A stretch of DNA of 39,195 nt from Escherichia phage JEP4. Each line of letters begins with the position of its first letter. The first letter of the stretch is position 1. Of this stretch, positions 1,964 to 31,953 are shown one piece after another. The stretch lies in sequence record MT740315.1; one strand, written 5' to 3'. The position numbers and the translations under genes are program-made. A model generated the notes under the pieces. It saw only the letters and a program-made list of their open reading frames with translations. It ran no database searches and was not told where the DNA came from.

Positions 1964-4164
1964 TGGCTGATGATAGAAAGATGACTGACTGGCATCGCAA
2001 GGTGCTGTGCAACTTTGATAATGCCTGGTCAGCAACGCAGGATATGCGAGAGCAGATTATTGAGGCTCAACGTTTCGTCCGGGTGTCCGGCGCACAGTGG
2101 GAAGGCAGCACAAACGCTGGTTACTCATTTGATGAAGGCAGGTTTGAGCATTATCCGCGCTTTGAACTGAATAAGATTGCCCGTGAATGTGATCGCATCA
2201 TTGGCGAGTATCGACAGAATCGCATCAGCGTTAAATTCAGGCCGAAGGATGACAAGGCATCGGAAGCGTTAGCCGAAAAGATGAACGGCAAATTCCGCGC
2301 TGACTATCAGGAAACATCCGGTGGCGAAGCGTGTGATAACGCATTTGATGATGCTGTAACGGGCGGATTCGGTTGTTTCCGCATGTGTGCCGATTACGAA
2401 GATGAAATGGACCCAAGTAACGAGCAGCGACGCATCAGCCTTCTTCCTGTTTACGACCCAGCGACATGCGTTTTCTTCGATCAGGACAGCAAGCAATATG
2501 ACCGCTCTGATGCTATGTGGGCTATGGAAATGTTCTCCATGACGCCTAAAGCGTTCGAGGCTGAATACCCTGATTCCATCGCGGCAAGCCTTTCTCGTGA
2601 TGACACTGGCACTCAATATGACTGGTCAACGCCAGATGCCATCTATGTTGGTCGCTACTACGAAGTTCGCATAGAGAAGGTGAAGCTCACGGCATGGCGC
2701 AACCCTGTTAGCGGAGAAACGGCAATTTATGATGAAGAGCAAATCAAAGATATTGTCGACGAGCTGACCGATGGTGCATTCGAACTGATTGGCGAGCGAA
2801 CGGTGAAGAAGCGCCGCGTTTATTGCGGTCTTCTGTCTGGCGCTGAATGGCTGGAAGAACCGAAGCGTATTCCGGGCGAACATATTCCTCTCATCCCGGT
2901 ATATGGGCGTCGATCATTTGTTGATAATCAGGAGCGAATCGAAGGTCACGCAGCAAAAGCGATGGATGCACAGCGTCTTGAGAACCTGATGGTTTCCATG
3001 ATTGCAGATAACGCTACTCAGGCTGGCGGTGATGGCATTCCTGTAGTTGATGTTGACATGATTCCTGGTCCTCTCGCCACTCATTGGGCGGAGCGCAACA
3101 AAAAGCGCCCGGCGTTCCTGCCGATGGTCAGTCTGAAAAACAAAAACGGAGATATTACTGCGCAGGCTCAGGTCAGCAGTTATACACCTCCGACACAAAT
3201 GCCTCCTGCTCTTGCCGGGCTATTGCAGTACACCGGAACGGCTATTCAGCAAATTACAGGTGCGTCGCAGCTTGAGAATATGCCGAGCAACGTCGCTACC
3301 GATACCGTTGATAGCATCTTTAACCGGATGGACACGCAGTCCTATATCTACATGGACAACATGGCTAAATCCATGCGCCGCGCTGGCGTCGTGTGGCTTT
3401 CTATGGCGCGTGAAGTCTATGGCAGCGATACGCCAATGCGCATCGTTAATGAGGACGGCAGCGATGACGTGGCGCTGATGACTGGTGAAGTGGTTGACCG
3501 TCAGACAGGGCAGGTTATCGCGCTTAACGACCTTTCGCAGGGTAACTATGAAGTGACTGTCGATGTCGGTCAGTCGTTCGCTACTCGCCGTGATGCAACG
3601 GTTAAGTCGTTACTTTCCATGCTGGCACTTATCCCACCAGGAACGCCGAAGCACGACCTTGTATCGTCGATGATTCTCGACAATATGGACGGCGAAGGGA
3701 TGGACGACCTGAAAGAATACAACCGCAATCAGTTGCTTCTGTCTGGAGTTATCAAGCCGAGAACGCCTGAAGAACAGCAGATGGTTGAACAGGCGAAACA
3801 ACAACAGGCCAGTCAGCCAGATCCGGCTATGGTTGCAGCGCAAGGTCAGCTTCTTGCTGGTCAGGCTGAATTGCAGAAAGCGCAGAACGAACAGGCAGCC
3901 ATTCAGGTTAAAGCATTCCAGGCACAGACTGATGCTCAGGTTGCAGCGGCAAATGTTGTGAAAATCCTCGCATCTGCCGATAGCCAGCAGAAATCTGATA
4001 TCCGCGAGGCTCTGAAACTGCTCGGACAGTTCCAGCAACAGCAAGGAGATAATGCCCGTGCTGATGCAGAGCTTGTCCTGAAAAGTCAGGCACAGGGCCA
4101 TGCGCAGCGCATGGACATCAGCAGCATCCTGCAAAAATCAACTCAGCAACAACCACAGCAGTAA
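1960..4164 (+). CDS. Portal protein (P22 gp1-like)
   Basis: About 735 aa; C-terminal Q/A-rich helical barrel region (PEEQQMVEQAKQQQASQPDPAMVAAQGQLLAGQAELQKAQNEQ) as in P22 portal; ATGA overlap with TerL stop; ORF-track start 1948 is probably an upstream extension. Confidence 0.9.
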   Translation: MMADDRKMTDWHRKVLCNFDNAWSATQDMREQIIEAQRFVRVSGAQWEGSTNAGYSFDEGRFEHYPRFELNKIARECDRIIGEYRQNRISVKFRPKDDKASEALAEKMNGKFRADYQETSGGEACDNAFDDAVTGGFGCFRMCADYEDEMDPSNEQRRISLLPVYDPATCVFFDQDSKQYDRSDAMWAMEMFSMTPKAFEAEYPDSIAASLSRDDTGTQYDWSTPDAIYVGRYYEVRIEKVKLTAWRNPVSGETAIYDEEQIKDIVDELTDGAFELIGERTVKKRRVYCGLLSGAEWLEEPKRIPGEHIPLIPVYGRRSFVDNQERIEGHAAKAMDAQRLENLMVSMIADNATQAGGDGIPVVDVDMIPGPLATHWAERNKKRPAFLPMVSLKNKNGDITAQAQVSSYTPPTQMPPALAGLLQYTGTAIQQITGASQLENMPSNVATDTVDSIFNRMDTQSYIYMDNMAKSMRRAGVVWLSMAREVYGSDTPMRIVNEDGSDDVALMTGEVVDRQTGQVIALNDLSQGNYEVTVDVGQSFATRRDATVKSLLSMLALIPPGTPKHDLVSSMILDNMDGEGMDDLKEYNRNQLLLSGVIKPRTPEEQQMVEQAKQQQASQPDPAMVAAQGQLLAGQAELQKAQNEQAAIQVKAFQAQTDAQVAAANVVKILASADSQQKSDIREALKLLGQFQQQQGDNARADAELVLKSQAQGHAQRMDISSILQKSTQQQPQQ

Positions 4165-26419: not shown

Positions 26420-26529
26420 TTTGACCTCCATTTTCTGTAGGCTTCGATGGCCTCACGAAACATCTTTTCATCGCCAATAAAAGTGGCGATAGTGAATTTA
26501 GTCTGGATAGCCATAAGTGTTTTATCCAT
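26416..26529 (-). CDS. kil: Kil-like host cell-division inhibitor (37 aa)
   Basis: MDKTLMAIQTKFTIATFIGDEKMFREAIEAYRKW matches recalled lambda Kil N-terminus; start overlaps cIII stop. Confidence 0.6.
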   Translation of the reverse strand: MDKTLMAIQTKFTIATFIGDEKMFREAIEAYRKWRSK

Positions 26530-26662
26530 TTTTGGGAACTCCTGGCTGATTAAGTACGTCGATGAGTCGTTTCCATCCGTCACGTAATTTACGGGTGATT
26601 CGTTCAAGTAAAGATTCGGAAGGGCAGCCAGCAACAGGCCACCCTGCAATGGCATATTGCAT
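26522..26662 (-). CDS. cIII: CIII-like protease inhibitor (46 aa)
   Basis: MQYAIAGWPVAGCPSESLLERITRKLRDGWKRLIDVLNQPGVPKNG matches lambda CIII; ORF-track 26722 start is an extension. Confidence 0.75.
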   Translation of the reverse strand: MQYAIAGWPVAGCPSESLLERITRKLRDGWKRLIDVLNQPGVPKNG

Positions 26663-26722
26663 GGTGTGCTCCTTATTTATACATAACGAAAACGCCTCGA
26701 GTGAAGCGTTATTGGTATGCAT

Positions 26723-27426: not shown

Positions 27427-27699
27427 TTACCTCGCTGTCAGTTGTTTTGATTTCCGGTAGCCTGCCGCGTAAATGGCTACGTTTGGCAGGCAAATACTTC
27501 CACTGCATTCATCTGCCTTCTTGCAGCGAAGGCTTCCGAGTGATGCTGCTTTATCTGCCCTGACGCAACCAGAGAGCTTTAGCGCAATTTTTCGTGCCAA
27601 TCGCTGTTCTTGCATTGCCTGTTCACGTTGAGCCTGTCTGCGTGCTCTGCGGCGATTTCTGGCGTTATCGTCAGCCAGATATGTAATGACTACTGTCAT
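27427..27699 (-). CDS. N-like transcription antiterminator with arginine-rich motif
   Basis: N-terminal ARM NARNRRRARRQAQREQ; GGAGG SD; first gene leftward of PL; nut sites with matching boxB on both arms. Confidence 0.6.
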   Translation of the reverse strand: MTVVITYLADDNARNRRRARRQAQREQAMQEQRLARKIALKLSGCVRADKAASLGSLRCKKADECSGSICLPNVAIYAAGYRKSKQLTAR

Positions 27700-27788
27700 G
27701 TTGACCTCCGATGATTGACTTTGGCGGTGACGCGCCGGGTGCTTATCTTCCGGTTGCCGTCGTGCAGCTGCACTTCACGCCACCCCAA

Positions 27789-27832
27789 AGCCAACTACTC
27801 TTTGGTTCCCGCATTTCGGCGGGACAATCCCA
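27789..27832 (-). promoter_or_regulatory. nutL (boxA-like AGCTCTTTAAC plus boxB hairpin)
   Basis: On minus strand GCTCTTTAAC followed by TCCCGC-CGAAAT-GCGGGA hairpin; identical boxB downstream of cro. Confidence 0.5.
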
Positions 27833-27893
27833 TCAATGTTAAAGAGCTTGCCAACCTGTTCCGTTTGGCTACCAGCGTCCTGCTGATGGCTTA

Positions 27894-27922
27894 AATTTAA
27901 GATCTCTTTAATTAATGGTCAA
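27894..27922 (-). promoter_or_regulatory. PL promoter with overlapping c2-type operator
   Basis: Minus strand TTGACC, 16-17 nt, TTAAAT/TAAATT; palindromic operator-like ATTTAAGATCTCTTTAAT overlapping. Confidence 0.4.
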
Positions 27923-27998
27923 GAGTATTTTTGAAGAAAACTTAAATTTTCTTTCGTAACTTAAGTTTGGCTTTGATTTTTAAAGGAAATAAAAAAAA

Positions 27999-28013
27999 GG
28001 GGCGAATGCCCCC
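27999..28013 (-). terminator. Hairpin with T-run immediately after c2 stop
   Basis: GGGGC-gaat-GCCCC flanked by A8 on plus strand, giving a T-run on the minus strand. Confidence 0.45.
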
Positions 28014-28664
28014 TTATGGAAGGTTTGCTAGTTTTGCATCGACAACTACGCCGATGATTTTGCAGTTTCCGTTGATCTCGATCATCGGATATTGTGGGTT
28101 AAGTGGTTTTAGAAACTTCCTGCCTGCATCAATAACTAACTTCTTGAAAGTTGCCTCGTTTTCTCCTTCTAGCTTTGCAACTACCAGTTTCCCGTTACGC
28201 GGCTCTACTTCAGGATCGACGAGTATTATCATTCCTTCAGGGATACTGAGACCGGCCGGAGCCGTCATTGAGTCTCCCTTCACGTCCAACCAAAACGAAT
28301 CTTCTGAACAGTCTACGGTTGTATCGTACCAGTTATCTATTGCACGCTTATGATATGGTTCTACAGCTTCCATCCAGCATCCTGCGCTCACCCAGCTAAT
28401 CAGAGGGTATGACCCTCTTGGATCATGCCTACTGTGATAGGCAATGTTTGAAAGACTTTCCTCTCCTTTCATCAGATAGTCAGGGGAACACTTCAACGCA
28501 TTAGCCAGGGCGAGAAGATTCTCTCCATTTGGCTCTGTCTCAGAGCGTTCCCACTGAGATATGGCAACATTAGACACGCCGACCATCTTTCCAAGTGCGG
28601 CCTGCCTGATCTTGAGTTCTTTTCTCCGAGCGCGAATGCGCTCTCCCATCAATTGAGTTTTCAT
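28014..28664 (-). CDS. c2: Prophage repressor, P22 C2-type (HTH plus S24 peptidase)
   Basis: MKTQLMGERIRARRKELKIRQAALGKMVGVSNVAISQWERSETEPNGENLLAL matches P22 c2 as recalled; intact catalytic GDSM and FKK; Ala-Gly in linker. Confidence 0.95.
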   Translation of the reverse strand: MKTQLMGERIRARRKELKIRQAALGKMVGVSNVAISQWERSETEPNGENLLALANALKCSPDYLMKGEESLSNIAYHSRHDPRGSYPLISWVSAGCWMEAVEPYHKRAIDNWYDTTVDCSEDSFWLDVKGDSMTAPAGLSIPEGMIILVDPEVEPRNGKLVVAKLEGENEATFKKLVIDAGRKFLKPLNPQYPMIEINGNCKIIGVVVDAKLANLP

Positions 28665-28686
28665 AGTTAAGACATCTTAAATAAAC

Positions 28687-28714
28687 TTGACTTAAGATTC
28701 CTTTAGTGGATAAT
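28687..28714 (+). promoter_or_regulatory. PR promoter with OR operators
   Basis: TTGACT, 16 nt, GATAAT; flanked by operator-like repeats ATTTAAGTGTTCTTTAATT and AGTTAAGACATCTTAAAT. Confidence 0.55.
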
Positions 28715-28744
28715 TTAAGTGTTCTTTAATTTCGGAGCGAGTCT

Positions 28745-28930
28745 ATGTACAAGAAAGATGTTATCGACCACTTCGGAACCCAGCGTGCTGTAGCTAAAGC
28801 GTTAGGCATTAGCGACGCAGCAGTCTCTCAGTGGAAGGAAGTCATCCCAGAGAAAGACGCCTATCGACTGGAAGTCGTTACAGCTGGCGCCCTGAAGTAT
28901 CAAGAAAGCGCTTACCGCAAAGCGGCATAA
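28745..28930 (+). CDS. cro: Cro, P22-type
   Basis: 61 aa MYKKDVIDHFGTQRAVAKALGISDAAVSQWKEVIPEKDAYRLE matches P22 Cro as recalled. Confidence 0.9.
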   Translation: MYKKDVIDHFGTQRAVAKALGISDAAVSQWKEVIPEKDAYRLEVVTAGALKYQESAYRKAA

Positions 28931-28937
28931 GCAAATT

Positions 28938-28980
28938 GCTCTTTAACAGTCATGGTCCTCATTCCCGCCGAAATGCGGGA
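28938..28980 (+). promoter_or_regulatory. nutR (boxA-like TGCTCTTTAACA plus boxB hairpin)
   Basis: GCTCTTTAAC followed by TTCCCGC-CGAAAT-GCGGGAA; same boxB as nutL. Confidence 0.55.
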
Positions 28981-29038
28981 ATACAACGCGCATAAGTTGA
29001 TGCGCATAACTTCTTATTTGTTAAGGAAATACTTACAT

Positions 29039-29335
29039 ATGGTTCGTGCAAACAAACGCAACGAGGCTCTAAGAATCGAGAGTGCGTTGCTTAACAAAAT
29101 CGCAATGCTTGGAACTGAGAAGACAGCGGAAGCTGTGGGAGTTGATAAGTCGCAGATCAGCAGGTGGAAGAGGGACTGGATTCCAAAGTTCTCAATGCTG
29201 CTTGCTGTTCTTGAATGGGGTGTCGTTGACGACGACATGGCTCGATTGGCACGACAAGTTGCTTCGATTCTCACCAATAAAAAACGCCCGGTGTGCAAGA
29301 CCGAGCGTTCTGATCAAATACAAATGGAATTTTAA
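29039..29335 (+). CDS. c1: C1 (lambda CII-like) lysogeny activator
   Basis: MVRANKRNEALRIESALLNKIAMLGTEKTAEAVGVDKSQISRWKRDWIPKFSMLLAVLEWGVV matches P22 c1 as recalled; ORF-track start 28952 would place nutR inside the gene. Confidence 0.8.
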   Translation: MVRANKRNEALRIESALLNKIAMLGTEKTAEAVGVDKSQISRWKRDWIPKFSMLLAVLEWGVVDDDMARLARQVASILTNKKRPVCKTERSDQIQMEF

Positions 29336-29357
29336 CAACATCCAACGAGGTAATTAT

Positions 29358-29630
29358 ATGCGAAACAAAGGCTTTAATCCACCTGATACACACAAAGAAG
29401 CTAAGCGTTTGCGCTTCCTTCGTTCCATTGATGAAAGAACTCAAATCTCTTTTGTGAAAGTTGCCAGAACTGAGCTTCTGAAGGCTGAGGCGAGGGCGTT
29501 GCTCCCGTCTCTACCAAAAGAGGAGGGATATACGTTCATTCCAAACGCATTTCTGGAAAAGCTTCTCAAAGAAGACATATCCGTAAGTCAGTTTAACGAT
29601 GTTCTTAAGGTCTTTCGTCAAGGCAGGTAG
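29358..29630 (+). CDS. Hypothetical protein (90 aa) between c1 and replication initiator
   Basis: ATG 29358 with GAGG SD; MRNKGFNPPDTHKEAKRLRFLRSIDERTQISF. Confidence 0.5.
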   Translation: MRNKGFNPPDTHKEAKRLRFLRSIDERTQISFVKVARTELLKAEARALLPSLPKEEGYTFIPNAFLEKLLKEDISVSQFNDVLKVFRQGR

Positions 29631-29632
29631 TT

Positions 29633-30580
29633 ATGAGCAATACAGCAAAAATCTACGATTTCAGCGCCGCACACGAGCGCAGGAGCAACAGGATGGAGAA
29701 CCAGAAAACTGGTTACATTCCGTTGTACCGGAGCATTCTGAAACAGTCATGGGCGAAAGATGTTTATCTTCGCACCCTGTGGGAAAACCTTCTCCTGAAT
29801 GCCGCCAGAAAGCCATACAAAGCGAATTTCAAAGGTCATGAATGGCATCTGCAACCCGGTCAACTGGTTGTGACAGCAGCTGATTTAGGTCTTCAGTTAT
29901 GCGACAGGCATGGCAAGCCAGCAAGCCGCGATCAGGTTGAGCGGATGCTTCAGGTTTTTGTGAAAGAGGGGATGATCTCCATTGATGGAGAGAAGCAAAA
30001 AGGTCGTGTGATCACCATCACAAATTACCATGAATATGCTCAAAAAATGGACAATTCACCCGCACATGAATCCGCACAAACAACCGCACATGATGCCGCA
30101 CATGATGAAGCCAGTAATGGCGCGGCTTTCAGCGTACATGCCACACATGAAAGCGCACATGAAGCCGCACAAACAACCGCACATCATGAACAAGAAGGTA
30201 TTAACAAGAATATAAATAATACCCCCCTACCCCCCAATGGGGGAGGCGATGGGCAGGTTAAACCTGAACGTCGAAAGGCAGAACGCATCGACTACGAATC
30301 CTTCCTGAACGCCTACAACACCGAAGTCGGTGACAGACTTCCACATGCTGTTGCGGTCAACGAGAAACGCAAACGCCGCCTGAAGAAAATCATCCCGCAA
30401 CTGAAAACGCCAAACGTGGACGGTTTCAGAGCGTATGTCAGGGCGTTTGTGCATCAGGCCAAGCCGTTTTACTTCGGAGACAACGACACGGGCTGGACGG
30501 CAGATTTTGATTACCTGCTGAGGGAAGACTCGTTAACGGGAGTTCGGGAAGGGAAGTTTGCAGACAGGGGGATTGCATGA
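29633..30580 (+). CDS. Replication initiator, lambda O-like (P22 gene 18 position)
   Basis: 315 aa; gene contains the iteron array and AT-rich tract; repetitive AH-rich linker; followed by helicase. Confidence 0.8.
30058..30225. repeat. Origin of replication: iteron array (CCGCACATGATG-type repeats) plus AT-rich tract inside the initiator gene
   Basis: Tandem CCGCACATGATG x2; 24-mer CCGCACAAACAACCGCACAT(G/C)ATG present twice about 94 bp apart; followed by AACAAGAAGGTATTAACAAGAATATAAATAATA. Confidence 0.65.
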
Positions 30581-31953
30581 GACAGGATATCGAAGCGAGC
30601 GTTATCGGTGGCCTGCTGATTGGTGGATTAACACCAACCGCCAGCGACGTTCTGGCAACGCTGGAGCCGGAAGCGTTTTCAATTCCGCTCTACCGGAAAG
30701 CCTTCGAGGTTATCCGCAAGCAGGCGCGAAACAGAAACCTAATCGACGCGCTGATGGTTGCCGAGGCGTGCGGAGAGGAGCATTTCACGTCAATCCTGAT
30801 GACCAGCAAGAACTGCCCGAGTGCCGCAAACCTGAAGGGATATGCCGGAATGGTCGCGGATAACTATCACCGTCGTCTGGTGCTGGAAATCATGGATGAA
30901 ATGCGTGAACCAATTCAGAGCGGAACTATCGACGCATCGAGTCAGGCGATGGATGAACTTGTAAAGCGTCTTTCAGCCATCAGAAAGCCCCGTGACGAGG
31001 TAAAACCTGTACGGTTAGGGGAAATCATTACTGACTACACTGACACGCTTGACAGGCGTCTGAGGAACGGAGAAGAGTCAGATACCCTGAAGACCGGAAT
31101 CGAAGAACTTGACGCCATCACCGGAGGGATGAACGCAGAAGACCTGGTGATAATCGCTGCTCGTCCTGGTATGGGGAAAACCGAACTGGCTCTGAAGATT
31201 GCCGAAGGCGTTGCAAGCCGCGTTATTCCTGGTTCTGACGTCCGGCGCGGGGTATTGATTTTCTCGATGGAAATGAGCGCATTGCAGATTGCAGAGCGAA
31301 GCATTGCCAACGCCGGGAGGATGTCGGTTAGCGTACTGCGAAATCCTGCATCGATGGATGACGAGGGCTGGGCACGTGTTGCTAACGGCATGAGTCAGCT
31401 TGCAGATTTGGATGTATGGGTAGTCGATGCTTCGCGGTTATCGGTCGAAGAAATACGCTCAATCGCAGAACGGCATAAGCAGGAAAATCCAAACCTGTCA
31501 CTCATCATGGTGGATTATCTTGGCCTGATTGAGAAGCCGAAAGCAGATCGCAACGACCTCGCAATTGCTCACATCTCCGGAAGCCTGAAGGCGATGGCGA
31601 AAGACCTGAAAACACCGGTTATCTCCCTGAGTCAGCTTTCGCGCGATGTTGAGAAGCGACCAAACAAACGCCCGACAAACGCAGATTTGCGTGATTCAGG
31701 AAGCATTGAACAGGACGCAGACTCAATCATCATGCTCTATCGGGAAGCGGTATATGACGAGAACAGTAGCGCCGCGCCATTTGCTGAAATCATCGTGACG
31801 AAAAACCGTTTTGGCTCACTTGGTACGGTTTACCAGCGGTTCTGCAACGGACACTTTGTTGCATGTGACCAGGATGAAGCCAGACAGATTTGCACAGCAT
31901 CAAATGCACCTGCTGCGCGTGGCAGACGATATGCACAAGGGGCGGACGTATGA
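30577..31953 (+). CDS. Replicative DNA helicase, DnaB-like (P22 gene 12 position)
   Basis: 458 aa; Walker [13 protein letters not shown], Walker B-like IMVDYLGL, typical DnaB C-terminal domain motifs. Confidence 0.9.

Follow-up and report, generated by a model that had tools for sequence, protein, structure and literature searches.

Gene organization of the locus

JEP4 is a P22-like (Lederbergvirus) lambdoid phage of Escherichia coli, and across the immunity and replication region it is essentially identical to phage CUS-3. The window analysed here is the whole stretch of 39,195 nucleotides (MT740315.1), and all positions refer to it. Between a lambda-type cII gene and an O-type replication initiator gene lies a 90-amino-acid (aa) open reading frame (ORF) that starts with ATG at 29358-29360, ends with TAG at 29628-29630 and encodes a protein beginning MRNKGFNPPDTHKEAKRLRFLRSID (Table 1). 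The start lies 22 nt past the cII stop (29335), a distance of 22-23 nt in most homologous loci, and 2 nt separate the ORF stop from the ATG of O (29633). A previous sequence-only reading of this DNA had reported an ORF with a GAGG Shine-Dalgarno sequence and an ATG at 29358, which the sequence confirms, and it was right to place the gene in the early operon that runs rightward, with cII before it and the initiator after it. The Shine-Dalgarno sequence is kept as GAGG or AGG in homologous loci, and the string comprising it, the spacer and the ATG, GAGGTnAATTATATG, is conserved across loci.

Table 1. Positions of genes and sequence features in the immunity and replication region of JEP4.
Feature	Position	Strand	Basis
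cI	28014-28664	-	
cro	28745-28930		
Lambda-type cII	29039..29335	+	Pfam Phage_CII (3.8e-48); 3' end near-identical to lambda
oop-terminator-like (tO-like) hairpin and T-run, inside the cII 3' end	29281..29311	-	Terminator scan, conservation, fold
Shine-Dalgarno sequence GAGG of the 90-aa ORF	29347..29350	+	Read from sequence; 7 nt before the ATG
Candidate pO-like promoter	29353..29381	-	Sequence read
90-aa ORF (family phrog_2519)	29358..29630	+	PHROG match, dN/dS, AF2 model, O-like match
AGG, last sense codon (Arg90) of the 90-aa ORF	29625..29627	+	5 nt before the O ATG
O-type initiator, 315 aa	29633..30580	+	PF04492 (3.4e-15); phrog_345 (1.6e-100)
DnaB-type helicase	30577-31953		

Coding status and selection

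The ORF list of the same stretch contains many spurious ORFs of 60-130 aa nearby, so the length of the ORF is no proof of coding. The comparative data are more telling. Pairwise NG86 dN/dS values range from 0.03 to 0.18 among seven diverged DNA copies (67-89% nucleotide identity), in which synonymous divergence is often saturated, and the variable columns of the seven-copy alignment are distributed as 30, 29 and 78 over codon positions 1, 2 and 3. The full-length relatives have the start MRNK, the end FRQGR and their length in common, and 13 columns are invariant down to 41% identity. Based on the low dN/dS, the third-position variation and the shared start, end and length, we conclude that the ORF is a real protein-coding gene under purifying selection. 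The comparative data thus bear out the view of the sequence-only reading that this is a genuine, well-initiated gene.

Family, distribution and annotation

The protein matches the family phrog_2519 over its entire length (E = 1.9e-57, residues 1-90 on profile positions 1-90 of 90), as do all 18 aligned relatives. The sequence-only reading could not recognise the product and proposed homology and structure searches. Indeed, no database gives a function: Pfam, NCBIfam and the PDB make no assignment, and the full-length family recovered by the homology search is listed in the PHROG catalogue with 'unknown function'. PDB sequence searches with the protein and with the family profile returned no match, and literature searches found no paper discussing the gene.

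Relatives were sought in three protein searches. One was word-seeded and covered 5.8 billion proteins, another compared a profile exhaustively with 1.84 billion representatives, and the third was a profile search based on a broader alignment. Two very large searches yielded 63 and 15 relatives. All relatives are 59-93 aa long, or are fragments or frameshifted copies, and they come from E. coli, Salmonella, Scandinavium, Serratia, Cronobacter, Klebsiella, Providencia and Proteus, in prophages of Enterobacterales. The exhaustive profile search revealed no full-length 'parent' initiator that carries the family sequence as a domain among the 1.84 billion representatives, and tblastn with the C-terminal peptide against phage records retrieved family members only. 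Two very long profile matches (1975 and 2536 aa) cover the helical segment only and were taken as coiled-coil noise.

The gene is carried by the K1 phage CUS-3, the gut phage Kapi1 and at least 48 sequenced Stx2a-converting phages. Its annotation is patchy. In RefSeq it bears the label 'hypothetical protein' in 279 of 5,426 complete E. coli genomes (~5%), and one Salmonella entry of the family was named 'replication protein' by its source. CUS-3 (CP000711, 31674-31946) and about 48 records of Stx2a-converting phages (LC616031-LC616078) contain the gene at 99-100% identity and have no CDS feature for it. A Salmonella-type copy also occurs at 2265-2507 of OR850084.1, a 2,692-bp record labelled 'Staphylococcus phage SA 1298 Kay'. 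The tblastn statistics of this copy equal those of Salmonella phage S.Inf 5-2 (74.1% identity, E = 9e-34), and the record is probably mislabelled or contaminated.

A probably retained oop unit upstream of the ORF

According to the sequence-only reading, the ORF occupies the place of oop, in the spacer downstream of cII. Locating oop in the spacer is imprecise, as lambda oop is made leftward from pO and overlaps the last 52 nt of cII (PMC5869508), a part that is conserved in JEP4 upstream of the ORF. The 3' end of JEP4 cII is nearly identical to that of lambda up to the stop codon, where homology to lambda ends. The ORF has not taken the place of oop either: the tO-like hairpin is kept within the cII 3' end, and a perfect minus-strand TATAAT overlaps the ORF ATG. 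The hairpin is conserved in seven loci and in lambda, with a compensatory double change in locus L005. The TATAAT (29358..29353) would form the -10 element of the candidate pO, together with a weak -35 element TGGATT (29381..29376) across a 17-nt spacer, and CATATAAT of this region is invariant in seven loci. A consensus promoter scan missed this candidate, whose -35 element matches at only three of six positions.

A 78-nt RNA spanning ~29347 to 29270 folds as two hairpins (z = -2.1). An Rfam scan of 27500-31000 at E <= 1 returned no family, and oop is apparently not modelled in Rfam. The lambda sequence shows a corresponding overlap between the -10 element of pO (CATAAT) and the ATG of O. Judging from this arrangement, a lambda-like oop unit was most likely retained rather than displaced, along with the candidate pO. 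By the same comparison, with cII, oop and pO as landmarks, the 90-aa ORF starts where O starts in lambda. The probable retention of oop is described here for the first time.

Predicted structure

A first AF2 run with 12 close sequences gave a poor model (pLDDT 57.6), which became usable after distant members were added to the alignment (pLDDT 83.8, with residues 31-80 as the confident core). The predicted elements are a long helix (residues 10-51), a short beta turn at ~G57-Y58 and two short helices (63-71 and 76-86). The protein would thus be mostly helical, with a core (~residues 33-88) in which one helix packs on the beta turn and the two short helices. Short family members (59-72 aa) match residues ~26-33 to 90 of the JEP4 protein, which identifies this part, by alignment, as the conserved core. 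Fold searches with the model, which the sequence-only reading had suggested, returned generic helical matches only.

In a Proteus prophage (L019), a 58-aa ORF at 3332-3508 lies just upstream of a short (59-aa) family member. It weakly resembles the N-terminal part of the JEP4 protein (hhalign E = 0.008, residues 3-25). The N-terminal and core halves of the 90-aa protein may be separate genes in this prophage.

Probable partial homology to the O N-terminal domain

The C-terminal third of the protein resembles replication initiators. Residues 54-88 of the JEP4 protein match Phage_rep_O (PF04492) with 14.6 bits (E = 0.048) and an O-like PHROG with E = 0.009. PF04492 is matched by 16 of 18 members in a single register (protein 54/55-88 against profile 5/6-39 of 95), with a best E of 5.2e-5. 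When members were scanned singly, the O-like phrog_678 was also matched by 16 of 18, the O-like phrog_2365 by 10 of 18 and the DnaD-like phrog_16826 by 7 of 18. In hhalign, residues 54-88 (KEEGYTFIPNAFLEKLLKEDISVSQFNDVLKVFRQ) align with residues 25-59 of lambda O (LDDGYARLSNMLLEAYSGADLTKRQFKVLLAILRK) at E = 7.9e-5 when the lambda-type O profile is composed of lambda O and the O proteins encoded next to the family members in Providencia and Proteus. Against the O family that adjoins the ORF in JEP4, the register is unchanged and the score is weak (E = 0.17). We consider it likely that the last 35 residues are homologous to the start of the Phage_rep_O N-terminal domain. This partial homology to an initiator N-terminus is new here.

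Nevertheless, the homology reaches no further than the first third of the O N-terminal domain. The PF04492 scores of the protein lie below the gathering threshold of 28.7 bits, with other members at 12.6-20.9 bits in one scan and the best at ~21-24 bits. Profile positions 35-39 mark the end of every match, two residues before the end of the protein. The protein thus comes without profile positions 40-95, which comprise the later helices and the wing, and without the helicase- or loader-recruiting C-terminal domain present in the neighbouring O proteins. There are no origin repeats within 29358-29630. The protein does not qualify as a member of the initiator family and should not be called one. 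Helices 63-71 and 76-86 would correspond by homology to the first two helices of the origin-binding domain in lambda-O-type initiators. Because the protein ends before the recognition helix and the wing, it should not bind origin repeats alone.

These features also bear on whether the product could be a small DNA-binding or regulatory protein, with the three-helix core (35-51, 63-71 and 76-86) acting as a minimal helix-turn-helix (HTH) at the origin or in the pO/cII-O region. A tri-helical HTH could accommodate the helix lengths of the model and the four-residue turn that separates helices 63-71 and 76-86. Furthermore, close members show little or no change at the polar residues S75, Q78 and N80 and at the basic R87, and the N-terminal helix is basic. 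However, Pfam, PHROGs and NCBIfam assign no HTH family, the significant fold matches include no HTH proteins, and no repeated candidate operator occurs in or around the ORF. In O-type domains, moreover, both helices precede the DNA-reading helix, and the alignment ends at profile position 39 of 95. We regard a DNA-binding role of this kind as unlikely.

The adjoining O gene has several features of its own. It contains repeats with a 12-nt period, of the type CCGCACATGA, in two blocks at 30048-30202 followed by an AT-rich stretch, and this is the expected position of the replication origin inside O. A further repeat-like copy, GCCGCACACGA, lies at 29666-29676, near the 5' end of O. The O N-terminus (29633-29665), with the leader MSNTAK, is close to MTNTAKILNFG of lambda O. 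The sole PDB sequence match of the O profile is an Arc fusion with the lambda O N-terminal tag (9pio_G), which we take to be a ClpX recognition signal. Since the leader resembles this tag, JEP4 O may also be a ClpXP substrate.

Gene context and linkage to O

An O-type initiator gene lies directly downstream of the family member in all 11 distinct contexts examined, JEP4 and 10 others, at a stop-to-start distance of -8 to +2 nt. In close relatives the junction reads TAGnnATG. The two genes overlap by 4 nt in L015 and by 8 nt in Klebsiella (L016), Proteus (L019) and Providencia (L020 and L021). This adjacency spans two families of O N-domain, the 'ENQKTGY / ENQKQGH' type of JEP4 and the true lambda-O type of Proteus and Providencia. 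It also spans three partners of O, namely a DnaB-type helicase, a lambda-P-type loader (L009) and a Toprim/AAA primase-helicase (L020). What lies upstream varies: most loci have cII, Proteus has another small ORF, and Providencia (L020 and L021) has a cro-like gene and no cII. The invariant place before O-type genes, irrespective of cII, has not been described previously.

The last sense codon of the ORF, AGG, is likely the ribosome-binding site of O, and the Providencia copy has GGGAGGG at the equivalent position. The conserved C-terminal Gly-Arg of the protein is therefore probably dual-coded. One could imagine that the ORF is a leader for translational coupling or mRNA-level control of O, in which the peptide itself matters little. 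The close spacing of stop and start in every context and the likely O ribosome-binding site within the last codons of the ORF are in line with this idea. The amino-acid sequence, however, is strongly conserved along the core, as the low dN/dS and the 13 invariant columns attest, and O genes of the same type occur elsewhere without the ORF. A mere leader is thus quite improbable, and translational coupling may well exist in addition to a function of the protein.

A frameshift fusion of the ORF to O was considered and rejected. The O frame is closed by a stop codon at 29606-29608, the remaining 19 nt contain no slippery heptamer, and the junction geometry varies between loci. A further observation concerns the annotation of O itself. 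In loci L004, L005, L008, L009, L011 and L013, gene callers often start O at an internal methionine (MENQK...), ~62 nt after the small ORF. Yet all loci conserve the O ATG located 2 nt past the small ORF stop, along with the next 20 codons, and O is probably mis-started in many records. In an alignment of JEP4, L004, L008, L009, L011 and lambda, the O C-terminal domain switches with the partner gene, being lambda-O-like before the lambda-P-type loader (L009) and different before the DnaB-type helicase. Judged by this alignment, the switch is a clean case of domain-level mosaicism.

Among close relatives, pairwise divergence of the ORF tracks that of cII (Spearman 0.70) rather than that of the O N-domain (0.19). 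The ORF of L013 is 93% identical to that of L008, yet it precedes a different O subtype. Because divergence tracks cII and L013 swaps the O subtype, these alignments point to recombination at the conserved O 5' end, and the pairwise divergences show no sign of allele-specific co-evolution of the ORF with the O N-domain.

Of 68 phage records with this O N-domain, 56 contain the 90-aa gene. Klebsiella and Yersinia phages have the same O type without it and carry unrelated genes in its place, so the cII-O interval is a variable slot. As the same O type occurs without it, the gene is accessory: dispensable for that O type and no core part of initiation. This invites the suggestion that it is generic cargo, for example for superinfection exclusion, anti-defence or host takeover, that merely fills the slot upstream of O. 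The variety of occupants (a ParB-like gene, or a KilAC antirepressor with a 59-aa ORF) before the same O type agrees with cargo, as does a dispensable family without assigned function. On the other hand, no plus-strand promoter-like or terminator-like site flanks the gene and the gaps on its two sides are 22 nt and 2 nt, which is not the arrangement of a moron, an autonomous cargo gene. PADLOC defence models gave one marginal match in the JEP4 protein (JetB, E = 0.021) and none in two distant members. Homology to O and strict adjacency to O across O families and partners would also be unexpected for generic cargo. We therefore consider cargo improbable, if a little less so than a DNA-binding protein.

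The leading idea of the sequence-only reading was a modulator of the lysis-lysogeny decision. Such a modulator would act on cII, for example through its stability, its activity or oop pairing. The gene is co-transcribed with cII, 22-23 nt past it in most loci, its start overlaps the likely -10 element of pO, and its divergence correlates with that of cII. This correlation is expected from physical linkage among close relatives, however. In Providencia the gene directly follows the cro-like gene and there is no cII, and in Proteus an ORF separates it from cII. Neither cIII nor known cII/FtsH modulators show similarity to the protein, for which a Pfam scan at E <= 1 returned Phage_rep_O only. 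JEP4 furthermore encodes a lambda-type cIII reading frame (…MQYAIAGWPVAGCPSESLLERITRKLRDGWKRLIDVLNQPGVPKNG) on the minus strand at 26522-26722, so the classical cII-protecting factor is already in the phage. An action on cII thus seems to us about as doubtful as a mere leader function.

A possible accessory role in replication

The O-type initiator is the only invariant neighbour of the gene, Providencia has it without cII, and the C-terminal third of the product is O-like. For these reasons, we suggest DNA replication as the most likely process served by the gene, in preference to the lysis-lysogeny switch. The sequence-only reading had left both open in proposing that the gene may modulate the decision or replication. 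Its replication half gains support from O adjacency and the O-like tail, whereas its decision half is weakened by the lack of cII in Providencia.

Our preferred reading, held tentatively and at somewhat less than even chances, is that the 90-aa protein is an accessory of the replication module that is co-produced with O and acts through protein contact with the initiator or the origin complex. The gene would share a PR transcript with cII, O and the helicase gene, and its translation would directly precede that of O. Because only 2 nt lie between its stop and the O start in JEP4, and the two overlap in distant relatives, we infer that the protein is made together with O. It would then contact the initiator or its assembly at the origin and could, for example, mimic or cap the O N-terminal surface, thereby adjusting how O-somes form or how O is turned over. 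An interaction with O, any effect on replication and co-translation of the two proteins are proposed from the sequence comparisons, and operon adjacency in phages can reflect modular inheritance rather than function.

A more specific form of the accessory role, which we consider rather unlikely as it stands, is a third dedicated replication component. Here, a mini-protein made from the first two helices of the initiator would bind the initiator and set the timing, stoichiometry or ClpXP turnover of the origin complex. Binding could occur via a homotypic contact, or by completing or capping the initiator N-terminal domain. If this is true, a third component besides the initiator and the helicase or loader would be present in many lambdoid replication modules across Enterobacterales, among them the modules of Stx2a-converting phages.

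Three features suit a derivation of the ORF from the 5' portion of an O-type gene: its start geometry, its O-like tail and the leader resembling lambda O on the current O. The gene could have been partly duplicated, or the ORF could be what remained of an allele that was replaced. As no parent is detectable, this event must be old. One might go further and view the ORF as a non-functional relic, a 5' remnant of an older O allele that the present O replaced through recombination. The O-like C-terminal third, the ORF start at the lambda O start position relative to cII, oop and pO, and the MSNTAK leader still borne by the present O would all be accounted for. Strong purifying selection with saturated synonymous divergence speaks against a relic, as do a length and stop conserved across genera and the lack of a full-length parent among the 1.84 billion representatives. 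We give this reading hardly any credence. A stump is plausible as the history of the gene and not as its present status, and the conservation indicates that the product has been kept by selection since the origin event.

The gene is real, conserved and under-annotated, and catalogues had so far listed it as no more than a hypothetical family. A part of an initiator domain that selection maintains as a separate protein beside the complete initiator would be a neat example of a target giving rise to its own regulator. In Stx phages, the toxin gene dosage reached after induction is driven by phage replication, and an accessory factor of the initiator could thus influence Stx toxin output. Should the protein prove inert for replication, an annotation gap is still fixed and the oop/pO unit appears intact in this phage group.

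Comparison with known systems

The family phrog_2519 is the same as the 90-aa protein, without any difference, and its catalogue entry gives no function, link to O or context. Other occupants of the cII-O slot are of a different kind. Klebsiella phage 2b LV-2017 (L017, 1704-2501) has a ParB-like gene before the same O type, and Yersinia phage vB_YenM_210.17 (L018, 1568-2501) has a 59-aa ORF and the KilAC antirepressor. The KilAC and ParB-like products (226 and 265 aa, respectively) have no similarity to the phrog_2519 family.

Lambda cIII and similar small early regulators resemble the 90-aa protein in being small, helical, co-expressed early and encoded beside a lysis-lysogeny regulator. The 90-aa protein differs from lambda cIII in that it has no sequence similarity to it and is linked to O instead of cII. 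A further likeness is to lambda O and the PF04492 initiators, which the protein shows in residues 54-88, in the operon and in the adjoining O gene. It has 35 of the 95 domain positions of these initiators, without the recognition helix, the wing, the linker and the C-terminal partner domain. In their stead, it brings a feature of its own, a unique N-terminal helix of ~40 residues.
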